The position numbers were made by a program, and so were the translations under genes. A stretch of 64,000 nucleotides of DNA, from NCBI RefSeq assembly GCF_002113885.1, contig NW_018406231.1, positions 850,211-914,210 of the forward strand, given 5' to 3'. This document shows, piece by piece, positions 1-64,000 of the stretch. The stretch comes from Mizuhopecten yessoensis (Eukaryota). The notes beneath the pieces were generated by a model. It saw only the letters and a list, made by a program, of their open reading frames with translations, was not told the DNA's origin and ran no database searches. How positions within the stretch are numbered: the first letter of the stretch is position 1; every line of letters begins with the position of its first letter.

Positions 1-166
1 TTTTTGTTGACCTTTGTCCATGGAAGGTCCCTGCAAAATTTCATTGAAATTGGTTCAGGGGTTTTGGAGAAGAAGTCGAAAATGTAAATTGTTTACGGAC
101 GCACGACGACGGACAAAAGGCGATCGCAATAGGTCACTTGAGACTTTGTCTCAGGTGACCTAAAAA
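1..166. mobile_element. End of a Helentron/HINE (pearl-like) non-autonomous element
   Basis: (gacg/ggac) microsatellite, subterminal inverted repeat aggtcac/gtgacct, short hairpin tgagac..gtctca, terminal A-run. Confidence 0.65.
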
Positions 167-31061: not shown

Positions 31062-34000
31062 ATGTCGTACATGAAAACTAAAGCTTTCAGTCATGCCCAG
31101 CTAGTGAAAACACTCTTCAAGAAAGTCGTAAGAGCTCACGAAACTACATGCGGCAGCAGGCAAGTTAGCATATTGGTTAAAACCAAACAACATTTTCTTA
31201 AGATGCACACGCTATTCAAGTGCCGAAGTGGACACTGATGAGTATGACCTTGCCCAAACACAGCACAGGAGCCTGACATTATGTCAAAAATTAATAACAA
31301 TAGTTATACAAAAACAATACCTATACTATGCATATTATAGGTATTTTTTGTATTACTGTTATTAATAATTTTGATAAATAATTATAATAGGAACGGCAGG
31401 CTCCTGTGCCCAAACATAGGGGTATGAAAATAGATTTTAAGATTTTTAGATTTTTCGTTGAAAATTGGCTTAGGCAGATAAGTGTGAAAATCGGCCAACC
31501 ATACCAGGAGTCTATTTATAGGTATTATTGTCAATTTCCTAATTTGTTAGCTTGATTTTCCATCTGTATTCACATTATTTTTCTCCCTAACTGAAGCACA
31601 GGGGTTCATTACAAATTTCTGAAATACACATGTGCTATATATAAACATACACATGTAACGAACCCCTGTGACTGTATCGATCGCGATCATATACAGTAAG
31701 TAATAACACAATGATGTAAATTAATATTTATAAAAAATATTTTATAAGATACCGACTGTAAATACAGGAAAACAGAATCTAAATGTTATTGCTAGTGTGG
31801 CAGGTTTTAATTGTACTTAGGATTTAAAGGTCACCTTCTAGCTTCGAGCTAGAGGGAATTTCCCTTTAGCTCAGACGTAGATCGTCCGACTAGGAACCTG
31901 GAGATAGAGGGGTCGATCCCCGGTGGAAGCACACTATTCTCTTTCCTGTTACAAATGGTGTATGTGGCCCTCCCTGTGTTGACAAGGAGTTAGAACCTGG
32001 CCATGGGTTGTGGTGTTCGAGGGCGAACACATTTAAAAAAGGGGGGAGAAGTGTGGCAGATTTAAATTGTACATAGGATTACGGTCGCCTTTTAGCTTCG
32101 AGCTAGAGGGAATGTCCCTTTAGCTCAGTCGTTGAGCGTTCGACTATAGGGACCTGGAGATGGAGGGTTTGATCCCCGGTAGAAATTCTAGCACGCTATT
32201 CTCTTTCCTGTTACACTAGCTTAAATACTTTTATTATGAATTAACTTGAGTTTTGTTTGATTTCTTCATTATTTGTTACTTCGGTAAAATATTAGCTGCT
32301 TCCTACCAACTTGGCTTGAGACAATTTCACTTCAGCTCATTTTGAAAAGCGCAATACTAGTAAGCCAGAGGTCCTGGGTTCGACTCCTAGCGGAGGCATT
32401 GAAAAAATAATCGCCTCTGTTACAATATTTTATCTATATATCTTACACTTAGGTAAGATTTGATGCAAAATAGTTAATTACGAAACCATGTGTGGTAAAA
32501 TGTTAAAGCAAAACTCATTATTTGAGGTTCAATATTTATTATTTAAACACCATTATCAAATTAAATCACCTTTTGGCCCAAATTGGATGCATTTATATAA
32601 ATATATGCGACTGGAAATGTGTAGGATTCATACTTTTAGAGGATAAAAGGCTTTTAAAAACATACCCCGAAAACTGAAAAGTTTTAGTTGCGATGCAGAT
32701 GAAAGGTTGTGGGTATGGTATTAGCTTACATGAACGTATACAGTCACCTGTGACTAGTGAGCTAAAATTGATACTTAAAATACAGAATATCCAAGGCTGA
32801 AAATTAATGTTTGCTTAATACAACTAACCTGGACAAAAAAAGCTTGCTCAAAGTATTTAATTGAAATAAACAGTTATATTTTACTGATTTTAGAATTTTT
32901 GAACTTAAGTCACTCGTATGTTAAATTATTTGTGTTTATGGTTTTTGATCTGTCATAAAACATGATTTATATTTATTTCTGACTATATTATCAAATATAA
33001 CAAAGGATGCAACAATTTAAAAAAAAAAAAAACTTTTAAAGGATTAATTTAAACTGTGGAAAAGGGGTTTGCAAATTAAATAAAAAAAATCCCTACCTAC
33101 TGTAAACATAAAATGCTTGGTTTGTTGAAGGTACTATTGTAACAGGAGAGGTAAAATGCACGGTCAGACCAGGGTTCAAACCCGGAACCCTCCGAAATCT
33201 AGACAGACGCTCTACCAAAAGAGCTATCTGGTCGCCGACAATCGACCCAGTCCAGTTCCGCTACACTCGTATAACATAACTTATAACAGGTCATTTGTCA
33301 ACTATTTTTTAACAGATGTGGTTAGGCTGTTATGCGGCGCCTGTCAAAAGTATCTTGCTGTGTTAAATCTCTAACATTGTTGGAGAAGTTATGCTGGCCT
33401 AACTGGTAAATTTACAATAACATTCTCCGATTAATATTGGTCGTTTCAGCAACATGGTTATTTTTCTGTTGTAGACTTACTTTAAGATCTGGCGCAGTGC
33501 ACATAAGAGCCATGTTTGATAGACACAAAGATGAGCGAGACATGGCGAAAGTTGAGAAAATGATGGAGCAAGCTGAGCGTTATATACACTGGGTTGTCCC
33601 CAAAAGGAAACAGTGTAAGTAAAATGATGGAGCAAGCTGAACGTTATATACACTGGGTTGTCCCCAAAAGGAAACAGTGTAAGTAAAATGATGGAGCAAG
33701 CTGAACGTTATATAAACTGGGTTGTCCCCAAAAGGAAACAGTGTAAGAAAAATGATGGAGCATGCTGAACGTTATATACACTGGGTTGTCCCCAAAAGGA
33801 AACATTGTAAGTATAATGATGGAGCATGCTGGACGTTATATATACTGGGTTGTCCCCAAAAGGAAACAGTGTAAGTAAAATGATGGAGCAAGCTGAACGT
33901 TATATACACTGGGTTGTCCCCAAAAGGAAACAGTGTAAATAAAATGATGGAGCAAAGCTGAACGTTATATACACTGGGTTGTCCCCAAAAGGAAGCAATG

Positions 34001-37000
34001 TAAGTAAAATGATGGAGCATGCTTGACGTTATATATACTGGGTTGTCCCCTAAAGGAAACAGTGTAAGTAAAATGATGGAGCAAGCTTGACGTTATATAT
34101 ACTGGGTTGTCCCCTAAAGGAAACAGTGTAAGGAAAATGATGGAGCAAGCTGCACGTTATATACACTGGGGTGTCCCCAAAAGGAAACAGTGTAAGTAAA
34201 ACGATGGATCAAGCTGAACGTTATATACACTGGGTTGTCCCCAAAAGGAAACGGCGTAAGTAAAATGATGGAGCATGCTTGACGTTATATATACTGGGTT
34301 GTCCCCAAAAGGAAACAGTGTAAGTAAAATGATGGAGCATGCTTGACGTTATATATACTGGGTTGTCCCCAAAAGGAAACAGTGTAAGTAAAATGATGGA
34401 GCAAGCTGAACGTTATATACACTGGGTTGTCCCCAAAAGGAAACGGTGTAAGTAAAATGATGGAGCAAGCTGAACGTTATATACACTGGGTTGTCCCCAA
34501 ATGGGAAACAGTGTAAGTAAAATGATGGAGCAAGCTGAACGTTATATACACTGGGTTGTCCCCAAAAGGAAACGGTGTAAGTAAAATGATGGAGCAAGCT
34601 GAACGTTATATACACTGGGTTGTCCCCAAATGGGAAACAGTGTAAGTAAAATGATGGAGCAAGCTGAACGTTATATACACTGGGTTGTCCCCAAAAGGAA
34701 ACGGTGTAAGTAAAATGATGGAGCAAGCTGAACGTTATATACACTGGGTTGTCCCCAAATGGGAAACAGTGTAAGTAAAATGATGGAGCAAGCTGAACGT
34801 TATATACACTGGGTTGTCCCCAAAAGGAAACGGTGTAAGTAAAATGATGGAGCATGTTGAACGTTATATACACTGGGTTGTCCCCAAATGGGAAACAGTG
34901 TAAGTAAAATGATATTGAACTTTTAAAATAAAAAAAATAAAAATATATACTCAAATTTAACTACTGTGTACCAGAAAAGTTTTGCTTCATCAAACTTTTG
35001 CCCTTCATATCAGGGATAATCCTGGAGGGGGCAAAGGGGCCACATGACCCCTCAAAACTGAAACTGACCCCTTCATGTTCCAGTTTTCTTTTAATTTCAC
35101 ATAGAATGGCCGGCCCCTCTTAATTTTGATATGGACTTAAAATTGCTGAAAATGGCCCACATCTCTCAAATTCCAGGATTTTCCCTGTACAATCAATAAC
35201 GATGTATATTTTTTGTATCAATATTCGCTGTAATGATAAATTCACCATCAGTATGAACGGTAAGAAAGGGGAAAAGTAACCCGCAGCACAAGTTTCCTGG
35301 TATACAGCAGCATCCAAGTTATGACTTTTTCAGATTTCCTGATCTGTCATTTTGAGCTTTTTATATTTGAATTATATCCTGGTGTATGACATTGTGTTGT
35401 CTTTATTTATCTTTAAATCGCCGTAGTCCAGAATGACGAGGAGATTTTGACTGAAGGATCTTGTACACAGTAACACTTTCATTTAAGGGAATATAGTCTA
35501 TTTCTGGAGTTCAGTGCTGTGTATCACAAGGGTTGTGAAGATATTAAACGTATCACAATACTTGTCACCAACTTGTGTACAAACTGTTACCATAGTTTTC
35601 CTAGATTTGAAACAAACCTTGATAAGAAACAAATCTTAAGTGTTTGTATTTCCTGCTGAATTAATTTTAATTTTTTAAGTGATCTATCTCCTAAATTGTA
35701 AAGCATAATAAAGCAATTTTTATTTTTGAAATAATGTGGTGGTTTTTTTGATAGAACAAGAGGAAATTAATGCATAAGTGAAGGGCCATAACCCATACAA
35801 ACCTTTTATAAAGTATCACAATACTTTCGACGACTGCCATGATGCATCAGCACACAAGTATGATAGGTTAGCACACCAGTGAATCCTTGAATTGTGTAGA
35901 CATACAGTTACAGTGCATGTTAACTGCCGTTCAGTTTTATACCGAGTTATACCAATCTATACCATTATGGTTGTTTATCGATGTGTTCCTCTATTTATAC
36001 AAAAAAATGTAGTTGCAAAAAAAGTGTGCAAAATTCCTTAGGGATGTTGAATACATTGCATTATTTCTGCTTGCAGATGATCATTGTCCCGGAGGAATAG
36101 CCCATGGGAGATACGAGGTTTCCCCGGATATGGTAAGCAGCGTTTTAAAATGTTGAATATTGTGCTTTAGTGATAATACTGTATAACCTGAAATGTTCGT
36201 TGTGTATACACATTCGTGGTTTTCGTGGTTGCTATTAAACCACGAAAATAAATAGAATTAATTTGAATGATATATGTATCCACTGTCTGTTGATATAGGA
36301 TATCCACGAAAGTTTGTACCACGAAACGATCTAAAGGGCTTCAAACCATGAAGGAAAGTACCCACGATCCTATTTTAGGAAATTTTTCTAATCACCCAAG
36401 TTAGAATCTCGCTCCGACCCCAAACTTTGATATATATTGCCAAGTCACTTCACTCCCATAGCAGTCCTCTTCTCATTTCAACAAATTTTAACAAAAATCC
36501 ATATTTCAACTCCGGTGACATGTATATAGCAAAAAGTGCTTATAGTATCACAAACATAAGCCCTGTTATGTGACAATATGCAGTCTAGAGAACACTATCT
36601 TTCTGTTATGCTGATGTCATACCTTATGTCATGATCTTCAAAGCCAGGTTTGGTCCCCAGAATGTCATATGACATTGGTGAAACATTCACATAATATTGC
36701 TTAGTTTTAATGGTAAAATAAATATTTGTCCAGTGTCCAGGGTTAGAGTTAGTATTTTTGTTTGGTAGTGCTCTGGACTGGCTGAATAGATTGTTTGATA
36801 ATCCTACGTAAATGCATCTAGTCAAACAAGAAATCCTACGTTAATGTACCTAGTCAAACAAGTAATCCTCCGTTACTGTATCTAGTCAAACAAGCAATCC
36901 TACGTTAATGTATCTAATCAAACAAGCAATCCTACGTTAATGTACCTAGTCAAACAAGTAATCCTACATTAATGTATCTAGTCAAACAAGTAATCCTACG

Positions 37001-43800: not shown

Positions 43801-46800
43801 TTGGTGACAATCACAAATGACAGACCATGTGTAATTGACCATTTATATACAATATTAACAATGCTATTATTCGGTATAGGGTATACCCATATACATATAA
43901 GATAAACTAAGGTCATATAGACAGTGAATTTGTAGTTCATTAACACTATAAATTAAAACTATTGGTATTAACCTCACACCAATAAACTTAAAAGTGGACT
44001 CAGTTTTAAGACCAGCTTAATTAACTACAAGCCAATTCCACTATCAACACCCTAGGCCTTTTGATTATTAAGATAAAATTATTTTAAAGATTTTGGACCC
44101 ATGTGACCTTAAAAGTGGCTCAAGGTCATTCTTTTGATAAAAGTTTGTAGCCTATCATTCCAACATGAAACTGGTCAAATATCATCACCCTTGGACTTTT
44201 GGTTATTAGGATGTTAAAATATTTCAACACAATTGATCCATGTGACCTTGAAAGCAGGTAAAGGTCATCCATTTGACCACACTTTGTAGCCCTTTATCCC
44301 AGCAGGCTACTTGCCAGATATCATCACCCTTGGCCTTCTGGGTATTAAGAACAAGATGTTTAATTATTTTGACAAATTTGACCACTTTGGGCCAGGTGAG
44401 AAGCATGACCTGACCATTAAAATCATTGAAGTGTCCAGATCAATTAACACTTTCACCCCTGAAATTTAATGATGTACTATTCCAACCTTTGAATTGGAAG
44501 AGTTCAAGTGTGTATTCAGGGGTGAATGAGTTGATGATGTTAAAGTACACTTTACCGTTCAAAGACTAATACATGGCATTCTACTGTAAACACAATCTAC
44601 CAAAGTGTCCAGACTAATAAACTTCAACTAATGTGTTCAGACAGATTTGGTTCTATTGTACTCAAAATCCATCAATGTTTCCAGAGATATTGTGTTACAT
44701 AGTACAATAACATAGATATATTACTATTATAGTAATTGATCGTCCTACGTTATTTAATAAATATAATTGCATTGAATCTTATAATGGAAGTTTTGGCAAT
44801 TAAAGTCTTTAATCTGTTTAGATACTACTCCACATAATGTTGTTTTCAATTTGAACACTTTGTACGAAAACTTTTTAATGAAGATGATCTACATACCCTT
44901 TCCGTTTGACAGCGCCGGCTAAAAGTGTCATCTGAGATTTCTTGTTTTGTGCTGCACCAATTGGAGGTTTGGATGGAACTTTTCTGTCGTCAGACATTTT
45001 TGGATCTGTTACCTTGGTAACGGATGCTTCCTGATCAAGGTTAAGGCTAACACATAGATTCAATATACTACTGTACTGAGGTTCCACAGTACACTGTACT
45101 GATAGCTGGATTTACTTGTGGTTTTCACTAACAATATATTTTCACCTGGAAACTTCAACATACAGTCATAAAATATACTGCAATAATCAGTAAAAAAACC
45201 TCAATATAATGCCTATTATTTCATATGCCAGCTCGCCTACAACCACAACACTTTAAGGTCCCTTTGTCACATTTTTTCAAGAATTCCTTGATACCTTTTC
45301 CTTCAATTGATTATGATATCCCTTTATAATGCCAAGATAAACATTGGCAGTATAACAAGATTTACTTTTTGCAAAGTGTTATAAGTATTTATTTCTTTAT
45401 CCTACATTGATCACAATCATGTTGGTCTCCACCTTTCTCAGATCTGTTAAACAGTGAACAGGAAAATGTGCAAAATGAAATCAGAACCTAGCATCGGTGT
45501 TAGCATATACATGTAACAAGGTTACCTCGAGCGGTATATAATACGCCCGTCACACATTGAATAAGCAGTTGTTTGTATGATTGAAATATATGAAGTATTT
45601 GTGAGTAATTGATATTAAAAGAGAAATCATTCAACATAACTGGTAGATCAATGAGTGCAATACAACATCATGGAACGCATGCATCGCATTAATGAAACCA
45701 AGGGGCATAACTCCAAAAATAACTCGGATAATGGCGGTTATCGAACTTGTCCGAGGTTTCATGGTAATTAACCTTGTTGTGAAGATTGTAGTTAATCCGT
45801 TAATAATTACTCGAGATATATCGAGCGGACACCGTTTCGGCAAGTAAAGGGGCATAACTCCACAAAATATGGTCAGATAATGGCGGTTATCAAACTTGTC
45901 CGAGCTTTCATGGTGATTAACCTTGTTGTGAAGTTTGAAGTTAATCCGTTAATAATTACTTGAGATATCGAGCGGACATCGTTTGCATGCCCGCCCGCTC
46001 GCTCACGTGATAACATAATATGTCCCCGTCTTCGACGGGCGTATAAAAAGGGACTGCAAATAGTCCTCTATCATGATTTTGCTTTAGGTTTCTGCACTTA
46101 ACCACCAAGCTGCAGGGCAACTGGCCGACATTTACTGACCCCACGCTGAGGATGAAGTCCCAGGTCAGTTTCCCCACCCTCCTGTAGTGGACTAGTAGAT
46201 ATGATACTGTACACCGGCAAAACAGTCAAATATTCACCCTTTTCTGATATAATCCATGTTCACCATGTGTTAATTTCGCCCTCCACATGCAATTTTGTAA
46301 TTTCTATATGTTGTATGTTGTGTACTAAAATTTGCTGTCATGGTATATATATTCGCCCTCATTGGGGAGAGCGAAAAAAAGGTGAAAGTTAAATTGTGGC
46401 AAACAATTCCCAGTTTATACAGTTTACTAAATGACCACCGTTACCATTAGTGAAGAAAAACAATCAGAACATTTAAAATTCCCTTCAAACTTCAACATCC
46501 TCAGGCATAAATGTTTTTACTAGTCACAGGATACTTCCATCTCTTTCATGATGTCCTTTTCTTCTTTGTATCTGGCCTTTATGATGTCTATTTGATTCTT
46601 TGACACATACTCCAGAAATCCAGCCTCATCTTCATCTAAACCCTTGACACTGTTCTCTACAAAAAAGCATATCAAATCATGAAACAGCTTTTCTAGAGTT
46701 TCAGTGTACAAACACAGGACTAGGAACAGTTGCCAAGGAAACATAACCTCATACTGTACTTGTCAATTTAAGCCTCGTGGTTCTTAAGAAGAAGTTGTTT

Positions 46801-48403
46801 AAAAAAAAAGTGATGACAAAATGCAACAGACATTGCAATATGCCATATGTTGATAATAATACAGACAGATACAATTGTGGTAGCTGGCACATATGGATGG
46901 GGAGATGCATTAGGGCCGAGGAGTATACTTTTTGTCTTTGTTTTTCAGTTTTACCTGAGAAAAACTTACTCAGTTTGTGTGTTTCCTCATATTCCTCCTG
47001 CTGCCTCATCTTCTGTTCCTGTAGTTTCTCATACAGAGATCTGTTGTCCACCACTTCCTCTGGACATTCTGCAAAGTTAACATAAGAAGTTGGTTAGAAA
47101 AAAACATAGCAGTCACAATTCATCAGTAGTTCAATGTTTTAGGAATTTTGTACATCATTTACAAATTTTTTTCTTTAATTTCAAATTTTGTAACAATTTA
47201 ATTTCAAATGTACATGTCTAATAAAAAAATGTACTAAAATCTTTATTGATTTAATTTGTTACCCGACTCTCTATGTCATATAAAGCAGTTTTGACTGTTT
47301 TCCTCCTAAAATTACTAACCATAATATGCACATTTTTGCTACCATACGACTGATGACTGGTCAAATGTAATACTAGGACTGTTTGACTGGTGATGTGCGA
47401 TGTACATTATGCAATTGAATGAAAGGCATTTTCAAAAATTGTGATGACTCAAACTTTGATGAAGAATGGAAGTGTTTGACTGCTGTAAGGTGTTATAAAT
47501 CTAATTAGGCTAACATGTAACGGTGGGAAATGGTATTGATGACAGTTGATTTGATTGAGGCCCTTTTTTAATTTATTTGTGTTTTAATCTCACTTATTGA
47601 CTTAAAATATATATGTGTGTTTCCCGGGTATCCCAACCTACCCTATATATTTTTTTGCAGACCCTAGAATTTCAGATATTTGTATCTATAAGATTAATTT
47701 ATAAGTCAGACAAAGCTCATAGCACATCTACGTATTAAAGTGTATCACCATGTCAAATTTAAAAAAAAATCCTTTTTTTAGATTTCAGAGGCATTGACCA
47801 TGATCATGACTTACGAACGTTTTGTAATCCCTAGCTATAGAACATCTACACATCACAGTGCGTCACCATGTCAAATGTAAAAAATATGCACAAAATTCGT
47901 GAATATGAAGGTGATTGTGCACTGTGCAGACAGTCATAAAATTGCAAATTTTTGGCATTCAAAGTCCAATAACTCTTAAAAATATTGACGAATTTCAATA
48001 TTGAACCCATACAAGGTCTCGTTGATATGAGGCCACACATAAAATTTGGTGAACACCCAAACACAAATATGCAAGAAATTGTGCCGAAAGTGAAAAAAAA
48101 ATGAAAATTTTATAGTTCAAAGTCATATAACTCAATACGGACAGCAGACAGACAAGCTGATTACTTGATGTGGGGCCCTAATTATTTGCCTACCGACCTA
48201 CCCTATTTCTTCAAGCATGTTACCTGAAACATATTTGTGATTTTTTTAGCCTTAATAATAAATTCACCTAATGGTTGGTCTTCTGTTCTGGTCTTATCCC
48301 ATTCCTCTTGTCGCTTTTTCCTGGCACTGTCAACTTCCTCTTGAGAGACGAATGACATCACGGATACACCCGGAACATTTTTTGATCCACCTCCAGCACT
48401 CAT
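40830..48403 (-). CDS. PSME3IP1: PSME3-interacting protein (FAM192A/NIP30), 6 coding exons
   Basis: Exons 48403-48268, 47068-46970, 46656-46535, 45030-44897, 43683-43634, 41020-40830. Motifs: [70 protein letters not shown], and C-terminal [19 protein letters not shown]. Confidence 0.92.
42508..43367. repeat. Minisatellite, 38-bp unit x ~22
   Basis: Unit atattaccctgcacaataaactcttactggctgagatg. Confidence 0.95.
45515..46049. mobile_element. Helentron/HINE-like element with internal ~150-bp repeats
   Basis: aacaagg start, subTIR atacgcccgtc / gacgggcgtat, hairpin cccgtcttcgacggg, two internal ggggcataactcc units. Confidence 0.7.
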
Positions 48404-48549: not shown

Positions 48550-50005
48550 GGGCCAATTCAGACACTCCGTTTTAGAAATATCGCTCAACACAGGTAAAAG
48601 GAAACCTGTTGGGAAATATGAAAACCAGACACACAGACAACATTTGCATAGGACCACTTCTGAAAGATGGCACTTGACACCACGACAGTCACTCGAGGGC
48701 AGAAATACTCAATACCCAGTTTAGATCTGTGTTAACTGAAGACTGCACTAATGAAACAACATCTGAACTACAAGGTAACAAATACCCACCCAAAAGAACC
48801 ATAGAAGGTGTAGTAAAGCTACTATCTAATCTCCAGATCAATCACCCACATCTTCCAGATCAGCCTGTCTACTGGTCACCTACCATCAGATTGGAGAAGC
48901 GCCTACATCACACCACTCATAAAGAAAGCAAATAACCACAACACTGCAAACTACAGACCTAACTCGCTAACTACAGTGTGCTGAAAACTTCTCGAACACA
49001 TCATAGTGCGATTGAACACATCATAGTGCGACTGAACACATCATAGTGTGACTGAACACATCATAGTGCGACTGAACACATCATTGTGCAACATATCACA
49101 AACGACATGTGACCTCATGAAGAAATTTGGCATGATAATCCAAACTGACATTACTATATATACTGGACTTTCTGTAAATCTTTCGATACTGTCTCCCATA
49201 TCGGTAGTGATGGGCAATCGGTTTAAAATCATAATCGATAATCAGTTTGTAATTGGAAGTAGTAAACCAATCGATGATCGATTGCATAATCGGTTCATAA
49301 TTTTATGGGACTGAATACGTAATTACCCAAATAAAGTGAGAACACTACCATAACATCAATAGACAGAGTTGTTAACTATACACTAGGCTTCTATAATGAA
49401 TGGATTTCAAGCAATTTTTATGTAGCATTATCAATCATATAATAAAATCATAAGAATATATGACTTTCAATTCATTTTTTACATTGAAAACATTAACACT
49501 TTGATTTCAATAAGGAACCGATTATATAGATAATGGAATTTGTAATTAATAATCGGAATCGGAAAGGTCAAACCGATCAATTTTCGATTATAATCGATCA
49601 TGATCATCAGCCCATCACTACATATCAGACTCTTGCATAAATTGGAACATTACGGAATCATAGGTGAAATTCATCAGTTGATAAAAACCTTCCTCACTCA
49701 AAAAGGCATCATAGAATTTGAAGGTGACCATGCATTCTTTAACACAACAGCCTGGGTTGAGTTGGGAGGTCCGCAAGGGACCATACTTGGCCCCCTCATG
49801 TTTCTCTGCTTCATGAACGACCTGCCATATTCTGTGTCATTCACTGTCTATCTCTCTGCAGATGACTGTCTGTTATACAGACAGATGATCAGGACTCACT
49901 CAGATCAAATCACACTCCAGTCAAGGCAGTGCACGTGTGACTTGTTTTCTATGGAACAATTGGCATCAAAGTGGGGAATGCACTTTAATGGCAAGAAGTG
50001 TTAAC
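48550..50005 (+). pseudogene. Degenerate LINE (CR1/L2-like) reverse-transcriptase fragment interrupted by a hAT MITE
   Basis: Frameshifted RT motifs: NYRPxSLT.VC.KLLEHII, LDFxKxFDTVSHIRLLHKLEHYG (joined across the MITE), GPQGTILGPLMFLCFMNDLP, ADDCLLYR, WGMHFNGKKC. Confidence 0.8.
49205..49620. mobile_element. hAT-type MITE nested in the LINE relic
   Basis: TIR tagtgatggg/cccatcacta; 8-bp TSD catatcgg/catatcag; subterminal aatcg repeats. Confidence 0.8.
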
Positions 50006-50670: not shown

Positions 50671-53600
50671 ATGAGCGGTGCAAGCGCAGATGTAGTGGCT
50701 CCTAACAATAGCGATATCGGCGACATGGTTCAGGAAGGAAAGAACAAAACAAAGATATACTGCCAAAGATGTTCGTCTCTCATTCTTCTGCAACAGAAAG
50801 CCAGCATAAAGGAAAAAGAGGTGATCGAATAATCAATCAATGGTTTTGTGTCTCACTTAAAAGCGTCCTCAACCGACAACAAGCGTCTTCAAGTGACAAC
50901 AAGCGTCGCCAGACAAAATCTTCAAAAATGCTGAATAAAGTAAGCGACATCGGAAGATATGTTGTTAATGTGACTATAATACACCCCTGCACCAAATTTT
51001 AATTTGATATTTGATAAAATGACCAAGTTATGATGAATTGAATTTTTACGATCGCGGCGTGGCACATGTGTGTATTAGCTTGAAAAGTGTAGAAAGTGTC
51101 GCCAGATAATATCGTTACAATTACCCGCTAAAGTAAGCGACATCAGAAGATATGTTATTAATGAGACTTTTATTGATATATATTCCAAATTTCAGCTCGA
51201 TATTTGAAAACATGATCGAGTTATGATTAATTTATTATTACAATCGGCGGCGTGACATACGTGTGTGAATAGAACACTACAGATCGTAAAGCGTCTTCAG
51301 ACAATATCTCGAATATTAACCTATAATGTAAGCGACATCAGAAGATATGTTATTCATATAACTATGATACAACTTTATACTAAACTTCCGGTAAAAATTC
51401 GAATAAATGACTGAGTAAGGATGTTTTTAATTATTATGATCGACGACTTGGCACATGTGTGTGAATAGAATTCGACAGATTGTGAAGCGTCTTCAAACTA
51501 TATCTCTAAAATTAATCGATTAAGTAAGCGACATCAGAAGATATGTTATTCATATAACTATGATACCCCTTTATACCAAACTTCAGGTAGAAATTTGAAT
51601 AAATGACCGATTAATGATGTTGAAACAAAAAAACGTACCACTTAACCCACAGCCACAATTGGACGAGATTTTTGTACTGAAACGGTATTACTCGACCCTT
51701 AAGCTTCTTCATATGTCGAGTTCTATTCACACACGTATGCCACGTCGCCGATCGTAATAATAAATTAATCATAACTCGATCATTTTTTCAAATATCGAGC
51801 TGAAATTTGGAATATATATCAATAAAAGTTTAACTAATAACATATCTTCTGATGCCGCTTACTTTAGTGGGTAATTGTAACGATATTATCTGGCGACGCT
51901 TTCTTCACTTTACATGCTAATATAAACATGTGCCACGCCGAGATCGTAAAAATTCAATTCATCATAACTCGGTCATTTTATCAAATATCAAATTAAAATT
52001 TGGTACAGAGGTGTATTATAGTCATATTAACAGCATATCTTTTGATGTCGCTTACTTTATTCAGTATTTTTGAAGATTTTGTCTTGCTACGCTTGTTGTC
52101 ACTTGAAGACGCTTGTTGTCGGTTGAAGACGCTTTTAAGTGAGACCGATGACAATCATTATCTGATTAGGATACAACAAAACTCGTGAATGATGTCAAAG
52201 ACTCCTGTCTAGGAGTTTCTGACATTTCCTGTCTTTGACATAAGACCCTTTAATGTTTGTTCATAGCATGACATGTGCTGACTTTATCATATGACATATA
52301 CCAACAGGCTGAGCCTGACTCTAAAGTTAACACTGCAAACCAATACACTCCTGTTAGAATAGTACAATTGCCCCTGAACCTGGGGTCTCGACTCACCCAA
52401 AGGATCAACTCCCTAGGTTATAACATGGACAAGTACCCTAACCATACAGTACAATGTATATACAATTGCTTAGCATGAAGAGATGAATACACTTGTGCTA
52501 CCATGATTTGCATAGGGATCGGGCCCCACCCTACATACATGTACTTGCTTCCTGGCCTTGGGTCATAGTCTGAAACAAGTCACACTTAAAACCGTCTTCA
52601 ACGTGGAACTGACAACAAGCGACAAAAAGCATTGCCAGACAAAATCTTTTAAATACTAAATAAAGTAAACGACATCAGAACTAGGCAATACATGACAATA
52701 ACACACATATATATATAGACTGACTTTGTATACTTAATAGTGCATGAACAGTTATGAAGCAGAGATACTTATTACTGTTTTAATTGTACATAGGATTAAG
52801 GTCGCCGTCTAGCTTCGAGCTGAAGAGGGAATTTCCCTTTAAAGCTGATCAGTGGTAGAGCATCCGACTAGGAACCTGGAGATTGAGGGTACCCAGTTTG
52901 ATCCCGGGTGGAAGCACACTATTCTCTTTCCTGTCACAAATGGTGTCCGTGGCCCTCCCTGTGGTGACAGGGAGTTAGAACCTGGGTTGTGGTGTTCAAT
53001 GGCGAACACATTTAAAAAGGAGGGAGTAGTGTGGCAGGTTTTAATTGTACATTGGATTAAGGTCGCCGTCTAGCTTAGAGCTGAAGAGTGAATTTCTTTA
53101 GCTTTAGAGGGTCCGACTAGGAACCTTGAGATTGAGTGTTCGACCCCCTTCTCTTTCCTGTTACTTTACCAACTTGACACAGATTGTAGTGAATCTGAAA
53201 TTCGTCTCAGGATGAACCTTGATTATGTAATTCTTTACATAAAAAATTGGGTTCATAACCATATAGCCACATGGTAGTATGATGGTACCCAAAAATATGA
53301 ATATAATAAAACGCCCTACCTACCCTGGGTTTTTTTGGCCCATGGAACCCAAAACAGACATATCTCTTTTTTTTGGTCTAAGAATTTAGCTTTTAGCCAC
53401 ACAATAGTTAATGTTTTGTACAATTGTTCACACCATTATTAATATGAAGCTGTAAGTAATTATGTTTTACTGCTTTTCCAGTTGTTTCTTCCACACATGA
53501 AGAAGAAGCCTAACGCTGCCCCTGAGGACGGGGAAACGCTGAACAACTTCTGGCTAGTGGAGGACATGTTCACCTTCGAGAACCTCGGATTCACGAACAC

Positions 53601-53721
53601 AGTGGACAACATTAAATATCTTATCTGTGCCGACTGTGAAGTGGGACCAATCGGAGTGCACGACATACGTCAGAATAAACTCTTCTACGTCGCATTGGAC
53701 CGTGTTAAACATGGAGAGTAG
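50671..53721 (+). CDS. RABIF: Guanine nucleotide exchange factor/chaperone MSS4 (RAB-interacting factor), 2 exons, 129 aa
   Basis: Exons 50671-50820 and 53482-53721. Zinc-binding CQRC...CADC pairs, FWLVEDMFTFENLGFT, KYLICADCEVGPIG and FYVALDRV are characteristic of Mss4. Confidence 0.95.
50850..52145. mobile_element. Foldback-like element with ~425-bp inverted arms built from ~195-bp subrepeats
   Basis: 50850-51274 is the reverse complement of 51721-52145. The subrepeat gtaagcgacatc(a/g)gaagatatg recurs at ~50940, 51132, 51328 and 51524. A degenerate terminal fragment lies at ~52580-52690. Confidence 0.8.
52778..53164 (+). mobile_element. tRNA-LTR TRIM family A copy in the RABIF intron
   Basis: Direct match to 31796-32215: LTR...cctgtcaca, aatggtgtccgtgg (PBS), aaaaaggagggagtag (PPT), tgtggcagg LTR. 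Confidence 0.8.
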
Positions 53722-58099: not shown

Positions 58100-58405
58100 T
58101 CCGTCTGCTGGGTAACACAGAACTGTCCGTCTGCTGGGTAACATAGAACTGTCTGTCTGCTGGGTAACACAGAACTGTCTGTCTGCTGGGTAACACAGAA
58201 CTGTCCGTCTGCTGGGTAACATAGAACTATCTGTCTGTTGGGTAACACAGAACTGTCTGTCTGCTGGGTAACACAGAACTGTCCATCTGCTGGGTAACAC
58301 AGAACTGTCCGTCTGCTGGGTAACACAGAACTGTCAGTCTATTGCGTAACACAGAACTGTCCATCTGCTGGGTAACACAGAACTATCATTCTGCTGGGTA
58401 TAACA
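58100..58405. repeat. Minisatellite, 26-bp unit x ~12
   Basis: Unit ctgtccgtctgctgggtaacacagaa. Confidence 0.92.
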
Positions 58406-60322: not shown

Positions 60323-63300
60323 TCATTTGTCAGCTGGTGTCACTGGAACATCTGCATCCTTGGGCTTTGTGGCGTCTATCCTCACACCAAGAAACGTGGG
60401 GAAGCGTGGGCTGCCTGAGTTTGTGTATTCCTGAAACTTGTACGTTATTATAGAACCAATCTTGGGTGGCCTTCTGTGGTCCTTGTCGGTCAATCTGTCA
60501 ACACAAACAAAATCAATTTCAATTCTGAATTTCTACACAGAAATTATACCTTTTTTAAAATTTACCCTGCTCATTTATTCAATTGAATTTAATTACCATG
60601 ATAACCATATATACAAGTATTTTTTTCAATAGTTGAATGATAAAACATAATTTTAGATTTTCACCTCATAAAATGGTAAAATTAGCGCTGTTTTCAGACT
60701 CTTAACAAGTTACATGTACAATGTATAGGTATGTGCTCAAATCCTTTGTCATGCACCGCTATGATTCAATCTTGTGATGGGATCAGAAAGTTAACATTAA
60801 ACATAGGAAAGGTTCTCAGCTTAGGTTTGTTCAAGCTAATATCTACTAAATATGGAATTATATGATGATCATTAAAGGCTATTGTCACCCTGTTACAGAA
60901 TGCTACCTGCTTCCTATTGACTCGGCTAGGGAGCTTCCTATTGACTCGGCTAGGGAGCTTCCTATTGACTCGGCTAGGGAGAATTTCTCTTTAGCTAATT
61001 TGGTAGAGCATTAGATCAGAGGTTCTGAGTTCGACTCCTAGTGGAGGCATTGAAAAAATAATGACCTCTGTTACATTGGCGCCCAGGTAAGGACACGGGG
61101 ATATATTACAAAAAACCTTGACAATACTTGCAAAGGAATCGCTATGACCGCTGGAAAACTTGGGACAATTAAGTTCTTTCCTGGAATGGGAGTATGCCAC
61201 CCTGGTACAAAATACTGACCACTTTCTATCCACTTGGCAAGGAAGAATTTCTCTTGGCTCCTTTGGTAGAGCATAAGACTATATCTAGCTAAGTAAATCA
61301 AAGGTCCTGGGTTCGACTCCTAATGGAGACATTGGACAAATAATGATGTCTGTTACACTATTTTGCTTGAATAAGGATTTGGTTTAAAGTTTGAGACTGG
61401 AGTTATGAATACCAGTGCAGCTCTAGATCTACTGCTGTACTTACCCGGACCCCACAGAGAAAAGCTTGCCACACTCCATCTTGCATCGTAATGCTCCCAC
61501 TGCTCCTGTGAAACGACCTTTTCCAGGGTCGTAACCAACCACAACTGCCTAAAGTTAAAAAAAACAATGAACCAATGTCTTCATTTCCAAACGAAAATAG
61601 TATTTGCGACCTTTAGGAGTTCACTTTTTAAATAATTTTATATTTACAATCATGTAGTCCTTCTACATAAAAAAAGTCAGTAAAATTATTAGAGTTTATA
61701 TGTTTATATCAACCGTTAACAGGCAAATAACTTTAACCATTTTGATACTGAGCAAAGCATATTTACCTGTACGACTCATCTATAAACCATTGGTATAATA
61801 ATAATAATCTTTATTTAACGTCATGTACAATTGTCAACAACAAACATAAGCTCTGAAGTGCTTTTATTACGAAGCCGCTAAGGGAACAAATGGTGTTTTC
61901 GTGGTGGAGGAAAACCCACGGGAGGAAACCACTGTGCCATTGGAGGGATAACAACTAACCCTATCAGACATCACTCTCTTATTTCCGCCACCGCTGGGGA
62001 TCGAACCGAAATTCTTGGGAGAGCGATCAATTGGTCTGAAGCTAATGCTTGATAAAAATTAACACACAGTTGTACAATGACTGTGCGCACTAGTGATAAC
62101 GGCTACCAAGGCACCCAACAGGTGCTTGGGTTACAATAATATTTGTTTGACTTACCTCGGCATCATAAAACTTCTTCAACTTTAGAAGTGTTTTTGACCT
62201 CTTTCGTTCATATTTAGACTTTGGTTCTCTGATCATAAGTCCCTCTCCCCCAAGAGCGATGATTTTTTTCAGGTCGTCCTCCAATTGCTGTTTACTGGTA
62301 CATTTAGTCTGTTTCACAAGCTCAGCGTACTGAGGTCTGTAGCAACAAAATATACAATTAAAAGCTGAAAATAACTGGGTATTCCTTAAATACATTCTAC
62401 AACATATTTTTCAAGGTTTGATGCTTTTTTCATAGGCTTTCCTGCCCATCAATTGGACAATCATTTTGATACATGTATTGTGATTGTGATCACTCACCCC
62501 TGAAATTTCATTATGAACTATTCCAACCATTGAATTGGCAGAGTTCAAATGTGTCTTCAGGGGTGAATGAGTTAATATATCCTGATTAGCAACAATGGTA
62601 AATCATAAATTGTAGGCTTTGCAAAGTAAAGGTACTAAGTTCAACACCTGCAGGGTTTTTTTCCATCTTATTTGTGTATTTTTTGTATTTCTATTGTTAA
62701 AAACTCAATGTTCGAAAAACTATAATTCTGTAAAAACATAGCAACATTTGATTTTTTGTAGAATTTTTCCTTTGAAAAGGACTGAAATGTTTTACAGTAG
62801 CGACATTGGTTATAATATAGCTTATATGACTTACTGGTACCCTTTATCTTAATTGAATCAAAATTGTTTTACCGTCGATAAGTATGTTATAAACAGAATA
62901 AAGTTAAATGGAGGAGGTCATATTTACGTGTTTTCATCAAAATACTCTCTCAGGGCTTCCTGTCGCTTTTCAAACGTTTCCTTCTCCATATACGGGGCAT
63001 CAAACACCTATTAAAAAATCAGTCACTTTGTTATTCTTTTTTTTTTTTTTAATATTTTATCTTTCACCTGGTAAATTATATACCCAACCAGAGTATAACA
63101 TAGTCACCACATCCATTTATTCCGTCAGTGTTAGCTCAAATTGTTTTATTAAGGTTAAATGTCTATGATAGAACTTTTACGGAATTGTTCCATATAGACA
63201 GGTTGTCTTCTTATTTAAGTTATGACAGGTTTCACAAATAATTTGTCCGATATTTTGGTTACCACTAATAAAATAAAATAATTTCACTTGGTAGCAACAT

Positions 63301-63900
63301 AGTTAAAAAAAACACAATATAATAAAAAAAATTGTAAGCATTGTTGAAGAATACAATTATAACTACATTATAATCACAAATTTTGTGTTAGATTCTATAT
63401 AACAGAAATCCTATGATTGGCAATGACATAAGTACACACAAGATCTGCAAATATTGGTGCAATTCTGCATGAAAGAATAAGATATAATTCTAACAACTTA
63501 TCCAAATTTCATTTCAACTTTTCTATATTTTTTTTCCTTCAAACTGATGAGATTTGGACTACAATTGTATATGGACTTCAGACAAAATTTGTCCTTATAT
63601 CTATATGACTTAGACAATATACCACAGTAAATCACTGACACACAAAACATAAACACCCACAGCTGGAAATCAATTTTCCCCATTCATACGATCTTCAATC
63701 CTGTTCAGATCTAACTTATTTTCTAAAACACATTTTTTTATCATCTTTATAAATATTAGATATAAACATTGCTGACTTACAGAGTATTTAATCTTTTTCC
63801 AATTGTCACACTCGGGTGTTTTTACGATGCTGACGGTCGACTGGAACTTCTTCCTTCCACCAAACAATTCACCATCAAGATGCATGTCTTTTGGCAGATC
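60323..63900 (-). CDS. Minimal ATP-dependent DNA ligase (bacterial Lig E / Chlorella-virus-like), 3' five exons; 5' part beyond the window end
   Basis: Exons 63900-63781, 63007-62928, 62336-62156, 61548-61445, 60494-60323, all GT-AG and in phase. Nucleotidyltransferase motifs III (LDGELF), IIIa (YSVFDAP), IV (GGEGLMIR) and V (LLKLKKFYDAEA) are present. They are followed by an OB fold (GKGRFTGAVGAL, FSVGSGLTD, PPKIGSIITYKFQ) and motif VI (PRFPTFLGVR). Motif I (KxDG) is not in the window. Confidence 0.9.
60883..61357 (+). mobile_element. Complete TRIM with tRNA-like LTRs, family B
   Basis: LTR1 60883-61075 (tgtcaccctg...ctgttaca) and LTR2 61195-61357 (tgccaccctg...ctgttaca). 4-bp TSD CTAT/CTAT, PBS tggcgccc at 61077, purine-rich ggaatgggag before LTR2. 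A-box (tagctaatttggtagagc) and B-box (ggttcgactcc) lie inside the LTRs. LTR1 contains a 24-bp triplication. Confidence 0.8.
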
Positions 63901-64000
63901 CTTTAAAATAAACATTTGCCAATTAGTTATCAGACTGCAACAGAGGTCATTGTATTTCAATGGTTCTGCTAAGTGTCGAACCCAGGACATGTGGTTTACT

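Follow-up and report, generated by a model that had tools for sequence, protein, structure and literature searches.

A 64,000-nucleotide stretch of the genome of the bivalve Mizuhopecten yessoensis (hereafter the window; G000:C2904:850211-914210, within a 1,089,826-base or 1.09-Mb contig of a 988-Mb assembly) carries on its minus strand the last five coding exons of a gene for an ATP-dependent DNA ligase of the LigK/Lig E type. This ligase gene is single-copy, spliced and transcribed, and seems likely to have descended vertically from at least the bilaterian ancestor; its two PBZ fingers likely bind poly(ADP-ribose) (PAR) at nuclear DNA breaks, where the catalytic core would seal the nick. We put the probability of this combined reading at roughly two in three.

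The five exons in the window had been proposed in a sequence-only reading of this DNA, whose coordinates, in-phase GT-AG boundaries and ligase motifs all proved exact: between 63900 and 60323 of the minus strand they make up a single open frame, 218 codons long and closed by TGA, with an AG acceptor on each of the five and a GT donor on the first four. Five further coding exons lie outside the window (Table 1). Extending the model past position 64000, as that reading had advised for the recovery of motif I, did find the motif (SEKLDGVR, with the catalytic lysine K242), and the complete gene has 10 coding exons, a 1470-base frame encoding 489 amino acids, and GT-AG borders on every intron. The Pfam families PF01068 and PF14743 each exceed their cut-offs within single exons.

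The gene is real, intact and expressed. RNA reads of two runs from one study (X21 and X22) bridge all four introns in the window (9-27 and 27-66 reads each, respectively) as well as all nine coding introns of the whole gene (9-27 and 26-66 reads per coding junction) and one intron in the 5' untranslated region (UTR). A run from a second study (X24) bridges seven of the nine coding junctions with 2-5 reads each, and all ten junctions are bridged in a set of contigs (X1) whose RNA origin is a guess. Runs X5-X14, which cover small parts of this DNA only, do not enter these counts. The claim of an intact, intron-containing frame is thus borne out, as is the existence of spliced transcripts, in X21, X22 and X24, which had been suggested as a check. 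Five junctions of LIG3 are covered by only 3-13 reads in X21 and 4-14 in X22, so the ligase transcript is at least as abundant as that of LIG3 in these two runs. The coding sequence also shows signs of purifying selection: 16 variants were found among the reads (12 synonymous and 4 nonsynonymous, over 306 and 1161 sites; pN/pS about 0.09), a tally taken from 40 of 74 rows in which two adjacent changes in one codon are counted separately, and none of them falls inside a catalytic motif. Copies of a short, highly repeated element lie in intron 7 (window ~62500-62580) and intron 5 (L010 4632-4696), where they draw hundreds of partial read matches.

The gene is a member of the published LigK/ligase E family. 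For searches it was represented by P0001, a database protein 88.6% identical to the gene model, which scores 320 bits on the NCBIfam model NF006592 (cut-off 200) and 38.7 bits on the dnl1 model TIGR00574 (cut-off 217.8). The best matches of P0001 in the PDB are Lig E enzymes (E 3.7e-57 to 7.1e-47), followed by Chlorella-type ligases (~1e-9) and the PBZ fingers of APLF; none of its 18 PDB matches is a chain named DNA ligase 1, 3 or 4, and it has no Pfam match to the helical DNA-binding domain or the PF04679-type oligonucleotide-binding (OB) domain of these enzymes. An AlphaFold2 model of P0001 superposes on the DNA-bound Lig E structure 6gdr at 2.1 A, with a TM-score of 0.90 by target length. 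The Lig E-type core recognised in the sequence-only reading is therefore upheld, but its description as Chlorella-virus-like is not, as the match to Lig E (E 3.7e-57) far exceeds that to the PBCV-1 ligase (1e-9) and a short GKGRF loop stands in place of a latch.

PF14743 matches a single locus in the genome, which is this gene, while PF01068 matches four, the exons of the other three matching DNA ligases 1, 4 and 3 in the PDB. The gene is thus single-copy and stands beside LIG1, LIG3 and LIG4 at other loci, which, together with the TIGR00574 score, confirms that it is a fourth ligase distinct from those three. It shares their nucleotidyl-transferase chemistry, and LIG3 is likewise recruited through PAR signalling, but identity in structural alignments is only about 20%, the OB family is a different one, and there is no helical DNA-binding domain. 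Since LIG3 also has a PBZ exon, this genome contains two ligases with PBZ fingers. That exon is spliced to its upstream exon by RNA reads in four of four runs; in X23, loose read ends run from it into the next exon downstream, whose appearance by eye is that of a BRCT domain, and a zf-PARP lies at C5506:295393-295644.

From its N-terminus, the protein is composed of a first PBZ finger (PBZ1, from Cys6), a charged linker (pLDDT, the predicted local distance difference test, <50 in the model of P0001), a second finger (PBZ2, from Cys107), a CxC..CxH domain (~141-198) that we call SWIM-like, an adenylation domain and an OB-2 fold. Both fingers match PF10283 above the cut-off (40.4 and 39.6 bits) and have the C2H2 ligands as well as the aromatic and arginine residues of the APLF pocket; PBZ2 aligns to both APLF fingers, with C-x-Y, CYR and two histidines kept. 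About 240 residues precede motif I. Because the two PBZ fingers and the SWIM-like domain stand before the core, the ligase is not minimal, as it had been called: the 271 codons past position 64000 carry both PBZ fingers, the SWIM-like finger and motif I. With Pfam, the full-length P0001 gave no BRCT domain, in agreement with the sequence-only reading. The counterparts of the Lig E active-site residues, matched by motif to PMC6144786, are S240, K242, R247, R258, E282, F313, M372, K390 and K392, and the GKGRF loop, which aligns without gaps to Lig E, occupies the position of the Chlorella ligase latch.

Compared with bacterial Lig E (Psychromonas 4d05, Alteromonas 6gdr, Neisseria 8u6x), the fold is the same, identity is 39-41%, and the absence of a latch, the G-K-G-x-F loop and the GSG motif are shared. 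Lig E has GKGK-aromatic and F-basic-IGSGFxD where the motifs here are the close variants GKGRF and FSVGSGLTD, one DNA-contacting basic residue being a serine here. Lig E consists of a leader peptide and only two domains, whereas this protein is leaderless with PBZ and SWIM-like domains added, and the label of a canonical Lig E was rejected. Six secreted-type Lig E rows form a separate branch (100/99). Chlorella-virus-like ligases differ in having an OB latch of ~29 residues. The nearest bacterial relatives are the leaderless NT-OB2 ligases of Myxococcota and Planctomycetota (cluster c of PMC8455567; a sub-cluster of #3 in PMC7470946), in which no PBZ was seen and many of which have WGR instead.

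Among animals, LigK or ligase E proteins with N-terminal PBZ fingers have been described from Lottia, Aplysia, Capitella, Saccoglossus and Biomphalaria (PMC6264785 Fig. 5; PMC10665377 Fig. 2). They have the same PF01068 and PF14743 core; Lottia, Aplysia and Saccoglossus share a clade with the present ligase (99/98), as does Biomphalaria in a quick tree, Capitella not being in the trees. There is no difference in kind from these published proteins, and the gene is a new species member of the group. The AvLigE or LigK of bdelloid rotifers (PMC10665377, PMC6264785) has the same core and one or two PBZ fingers, but these are C-terminal among PST-rich repeats, and it is reported to be phylogenetically distinct from the proteins of other animals. 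Two proteins of rotifer-type architecture (P0280 and P0308) show no SWIM-like pattern ahead of their core; they group with Actinomortierella and fall outside the bilaterian clade.

Sequence comparison gives good support to vertical descent from the bilaterian ancestor onwards, the animal copies forming one clade whose branching for the most part agrees with that of the species. In two careful trees of 58 rows each, based on the SWIM-like domain plus the core with subsets picked for spread, the animal sequences (including one row without a taxon name) form a clade at 99/94 and 99/98, within which bivalves (98/92), gastropods (92/84), hemichordates (100/100) and echinoderms (96/95) each group together. 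The ligase gene nests among bivalve orthologues, the oyster cluster P0040 being its sister in the reduced trees (100/92; 76% identical over tree columns). All five core motifs are intact in each of the 47 animal-clade homologues, 42 of which have two PBZ fingers and the SWIM-like pattern and two of which have one PBZ. The homologues that could be named (listings of 39 of 39, best 120 of 3912 and best 120 of 3082 matches) come from bivalves, gastropods, a chiton, three hemichordates, three echinoderms, choanoflagellates, chytrids, basidiomycetes, mucoromycote/glomeromycote fungi and oomycetes. Mytilus, Tegillarca and oysters are the closest named clusters, and the oyster RefSeq orthologues are annotated 'DNA ligase-like', as had been guessed of invertebrate annotations.

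Beyond animals, the eukaryotic rows form one branch in both careful trees (33 rows at 100/99; 38 rows at 95/94), as do all 51 eukaryote-labelled rows in the quick tree of 106 cores (Shimodaira-Hasegawa support 93), where 12 of the 51 labels were assumed, that of P0096 being later named as choanoflagellate. A FastTree phylogeny of 233 rows, for which 14 of 141 new representatives had been dropped for a missing motif, also contains a large eukaryote-rich branch (97), joined by one viral row and one NCBI 'bacterium' protein, with the forms carrying C-terminal PBZ fingers outside it. A eukaryotic clade is favoured by this sampling, because the rows are top matches to animal-centred queries; ciliate, kinetoplastid and named bdelloid proteins and LIG1, LIG3 and LIG4 were not knowingly included. 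Choanoflagellate, fungal, amoebozoan and diplonemid relatives with a similar architecture surround the animal clade: the Mastigamoeba ligase reads PBZ-BRCT-PBZ-SWIM-like-ligase, and that of Diplonema has two PBZ fingers, the SWIM-like domain and the ligase, with a weak FHA match under the cut-off. Approximately unbiased (AU) tests, on groupings defined after the free trees had been seen, reject the union of animals with all 15 sampled SWIM bacteria (p 0.00019) and with a 9-row clade of SWIM bacteria against other eukaryotes and Lig E (p 0.00065), while animals plus choanoflagellates (Holozoa) are not rejected (p 0.134). The sequence-only reading had left the choice between a retained and a horizontally acquired gene; retention fits better, and acquisition in this lineage does not agree with the AU tests and with a single animal clade of molluscs, hemichordates and echinoderms inside a wider eukaryotic one.

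That the eukaryotic forms arose once, near the base of eukaryotes, is plausible. A bolder extension, towards which we lean slightly sceptical, would see the PBZ-(BRCT)-SWIM-ligase as a fourth ancestral eukaryotic ligase, a self-contained, PAR-guided repair enzyme gained once, in or close to the last eukaryotic common ancestor (LECA), from a SWIM-ligase of Myxococcota/Planctomycetota type or from its viruses. Molluscs, hemichordates, echinoderms, choanoflagellates, many fungi, Amoebozoa and Discoba would have retained it and vertebrates, arthropods, nematodes and model yeasts would have lost it, and the several independent transfers from bacteria of the published account would give way to one gain with repeated loss. 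A BRCT domain between the two PBZ fingers was seen in Liolophura, P0056 and Mastigamoeba (among P0053, P0056, P0200 and P0041), and a similar insert is visible at this place in Solemya. The BRCT insert may be ancestral and have been lost from the present gene.

The domain upstream of the core has the pattern C164-x-C166 ... C181-x-H183, with strands then helices predicted at pLDDT >90, and is modelled confidently as a whole (pLDDT 83). The 80 best GTDB loci belong mainly to Planctomycetota and Myxococcota and in some cases to Verrucomicrobiota or Obscuribacterales; a CxC..CxH domain lies upstream of motif I in 70 of them, and the pattern is invariant in 35 prokaryotic and viral rows. Bacterial and eukaryotic CxC..CxH domains are homologous (profile-profile probability 99.7). 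PF04434 is the sole family matched by eight of ten bacterial finger segments, all under the cut-off, and several relatives are called 'SWIM-type domain-containing protein' in UniRef. The domain model gave no Foldseek match at E <=0.001 and a best Z of 2.2 among 48,161 chains in structural comparison, and a PDB sequence search returned nothing convincing (best E 0.21); these searches show neither a new fold nor its absence. In a class-wide sample taken around a Gammaproteobacteria genome the family occurs in 19 of 151 genomes, most of its proteins having hydrophobic, leader-like N-termini by eye and no SWIM-like finger. Large viral contigs (54-527 kb) carry ligases with SWIM-like fingers (L103-L105, L113, L125, L130, L134, L179, L181 and L182), in others (L174, L177, L178 and L180) another kind of domain, resembling BRCT by eye, stands at the N-terminus, and in the Obscuribacterales L023 and L024 the SWIM-ligase stands at the start of far longer open frames (1182 and 723 aa).

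PARP marks strand breaks with poly(ADP-ribose), and the domain order suggests how the ligase could act on such breaks. Once a break has been tagged by PARP, the two PBZ fingers on their flexible tether would dock the enzyme at PAR, by homology with APLF. As in Lig E, ATP would then adenylate K242, AMP would pass to the 5' phosphate and the nick would be closed, the adenylation and OB-2 domains probably forming a C-shaped clamp that partially encircles the DNA; the residues and the predicted fold are shown here. In the weakest step of this scheme, the SWIM-like finger would likely be a DNA- or partner-binding surface replacing the helical DNA-binding domain of LIG1, LIG3 and LIG4. Alongside LIG3, the enzyme would probably serve as a reserve or stress-induced ligase in nuclear base-excision and single-strand-break repair. 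A PBZ ligase of rotifers is nuclear, radiation-induced and an active nick ligase, contributing ~35% of ligation in irradiated extracts (PMC10665377). Nick sealing, PAR binding and nuclear location are likely for the present protein, as predictions from sequence and analogy, and the repair-related role suggested in the sequence-only reading is plausible by the same analogy.

Several observations weigh against parts of this reading. The chiton Liolophura branches first, outside the other molluscs, a misfit with the species tree, and three of the 47 animal-clade proteins, from echinoderms, are without PBZ and SWIM-like pattern. Both PBZ fingers have a tryptophan where the published consensus has a glycine after the aromatic residue (PMC4030884), and the SWIM label is under the Pfam cut-off (best 14.2 against 19.6 bits). 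Because the rotifer enzymes form a separate branch and have their PBZ fingers at the opposite end (PMC6264785), their function transfers by analogy only, and the kinetoplastid LigK enzymes are mitochondrial (PMC3077386). Finally, about one tenth of the reads in X21 and X22 carry one inserted base within a homopolymer run of exon 2.

An alternative history, which we consider unlikely, is transfer from another eukaryote (a fungus or protist) into an early bilaterian, with vertical descent only afterwards and the same biochemical role. In the free trees choanoflagellates do not come out as the sister group of animals, and no cnidarian, sponge, ctenophore, placozoan or annelid name occurs among the matches listed in the three homologue searches, although this absence rests on the listed matches only, many of which are without taxon name. 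The ligases of oomycetes group with those of the mucoromycote/glomeromycote fungi Jimgerdemannia and Gigaspora at 100/99 (P0078, P0136, P0112 and P0124), a candidate fungus-oomycete transfer, and the family has therefore probably moved between eukaryotes. However, the monophyly of Holozoa is not rejected, the combination of PBZ, SWIM-like domain and ligase is present in three choanoflagellates, chytrids, Mastigamoeba and Diplonema, and with the backbone among eukaryotic groups lacking resolution old vertical descent fits equally well.

A role in mitochondrial DNA, after the kinetoplast ligases from which the name LigK derives, appears improbable. Kinetoplastid LigK maintains kinetoplast DNA (PMC3077386) and has been placed within or near the family of this ligase (PMC10665377), and the sequence-only reading had mentioned a mitochondrial function. 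Yet Cys6 of PBZ1 lies right behind the start codon, the first 40 residues comprise 11 acidic and 8 basic ones, and in the spliced leader a stop codon stands in frame 12 codons upstream of the ATG with no ATG between, so that, by inspection, the sequenced isoform has no room for an N-terminal presequence. The PBZ fingers point to PARP signalling instead, and the rotifer enzyme is nuclear (PMC10665377).

More improbable again is that this lineage recently took the gene from a bacterial Lig E or from a virus, its introns being gained afterwards. Identity of the core is 39-46% to the 11 signal-peptide-type rows and 43-53% to the SWIM-ligases of bacteria, and vertebrates, arthropods and nematodes are reported to lack the family (PMC6264785), but identity to other animals is 57-95%, and the nesting among bivalve orthologues and the AU tests refute such a transfer at this sampling. 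Intron positions, looked at as a check on vertical descent, say nothing for or against it: of 80 loci returned by a metagenome scan, almost all match over lengths expected of frames without interruption, and the one intron of locus L276, within the SWIM-like domain, lies at another site than in the ligase gene. That the gene is a pseudogene, contaminant or assembly artefact is next to inconceivable, fragmented as the assembly is (82,659 contigs), since it lies on a 1.09-Mb contig with FAM192A and Mss4 exons in the same window, its frame is open and spliced in RNA of two studies and one contig set, its variants are mostly synonymous, and RNA reads across its junctions refute a pseudogene.

The novelty implied in the sequence-only reading was overstated, as PMC6264785 and PMC10665377 already describe the family and name mollusc, annelid and hemichordate members with N-terminal PBZ fingers. 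PMC6264785 reports LigK from bacteria, many fungi and, sporadically, protists and animals, notes N-terminal PBZ fingers and gives domain models of the proteins from Capitella, Lottia, Aplysia and Salpingoeca; vertebrates, arthropods and nematodes are not among its holders. PMC10665377 renames LigK as ligase E, lists Saccoglossus, Lottia, Biomphalaria and Capitella, shows N-terminal PBZ fingers in three animals, gives fungi, oomycetes, ciliates, Amoebozoa, Capsaspora, Thecamonas and Bodo in its taxon table, and argues for horizontal acquisition, possibly several times. Four LIGK genes are reported from Paramecium (PMC3077386). The leaderless ligases of Myxococcales and Planctomycetia have been linked to mostly fungal sequences, the available parts of these two papers reporting no function assay (PMC8455567, PMC7470946), and the available parts of PMC2806865 do not address the family. 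The word SWIM is absent from the main texts of PMC6264785 and PMC10665377, as are vertical, loss and LECA from that of the latter, whose tree figures, not covered here, may bear on monophyly. Literature searches, with subscription papers outside their scope, brought up nothing on ligases containing a SWIM domain, on PBZ ligases of bivalves or on a LECA origin of the family. Within that scope, neither the SWIM-like finger as a trait common to eukaryotic and nearest bacterial ligases nor the reading as one ancient eukaryotic ligase lost from model organisms was found in print.

Textbooks list three animal ligases because model animals reportedly lack the fourth. If the enzyme is ancestral and PAR-guided, molluscs and hemichordates would have a repair route that flies, worms and mammals have lost, and the account of a horizontally acquired ligase E would need re-testing against loss. 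In the available parts of the family papers cited, none of the animal orthologues with N-terminal PBZ fingers has been assayed. The SWIM-like domain, which is shared with bacteria, is without a clear solved relative in PDB sequence and structure searches.

Table 1. Coordinates of the ligase gene and of other features. Plain numbers are window positions. Motif numbers are in part those stated in PMC6144786.
Feature	Position	Strand	Content	Evidence
Non-coding first exon	donor at G000:C2904 920204	-	5' end not defined	
Exon 1	G000:C2904 918817-918939	-	ATG at 918916, PBZ1	
Exon 2	G000:C2904 917687-918080	-	charged linker, PBZ2, first half of SWIM-like finger	
Exon 3	G000:C2904 916540-916734	-	second half of SWIM-like finger, linker	
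Exon 4	G000:C2904 915782-915850	-	motif I, K242	
Exon 5	G000:C2904 915136-915190	-	SR motif, R258	
3' end of intron 5	63901..64000	-	gene extends beyond window	
Coding exon 6	63781..63900	-	motif III (LDGELF, E282)	junction reads
Coding exon 7	62928..63007	-	remainder of motif IIIa (F313) and next helix	junction reads
Coding exon 8	62156..62336	-	motif IV (EGLM, E369/M372), motif V (LLKLKK, K390/K392)	PF01068 32 bits; junction reads
Coding exon 9	61445..61548	-	first half of OB-2, Lig E-type GKGRF loop, FSVGSG	Pfam; junction reads
Coding exon 10 of 10 (last)	60323..60494	-	second half of OB-2 fold (PPKIGS..YKFQE..PRFPTF) and stop	PF14743 53.4 bits; junction reads
FAM192A exon	46752-47093	-	ordinary eukaryotic neighbour	PF10187
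Mss4 exon	53443-53718	+	ordinary eukaryotic neighbour	PF04421
Reverse-transcriptase fragment	49594-50004	+		PF00078, slightly under cut-off
Tandem repeat arrays	16022-17578, 28240-28586, 33772-34960, 58100-58400		long repetitive open frames	
LIG3 PBZ exon	G000:C5506:280703-280780 (L285:4703-4780)	-	after OB fold	

With FAM192A and Mss4 as neighbours, and LIG1, LIG3 and LIG4 elsewhere, the gene is therefore a fourth ligase of an animal chromosome and no contaminant. SLC66A2-like proteins cluster with the Mytilus orthologue, apparently via fused gene models, but no shared gene order could be read from this, the SLC66A2-like gene of this genome being on another contig (C3738). Upstream of the ligase gene, a broken element resembling a long interspersed nuclear element was recognised by eye from translations (G000:C2904:921000-925500, minus strand), and within the window there is a strong skew of G over C at 16001-18000 and 20001-22000.

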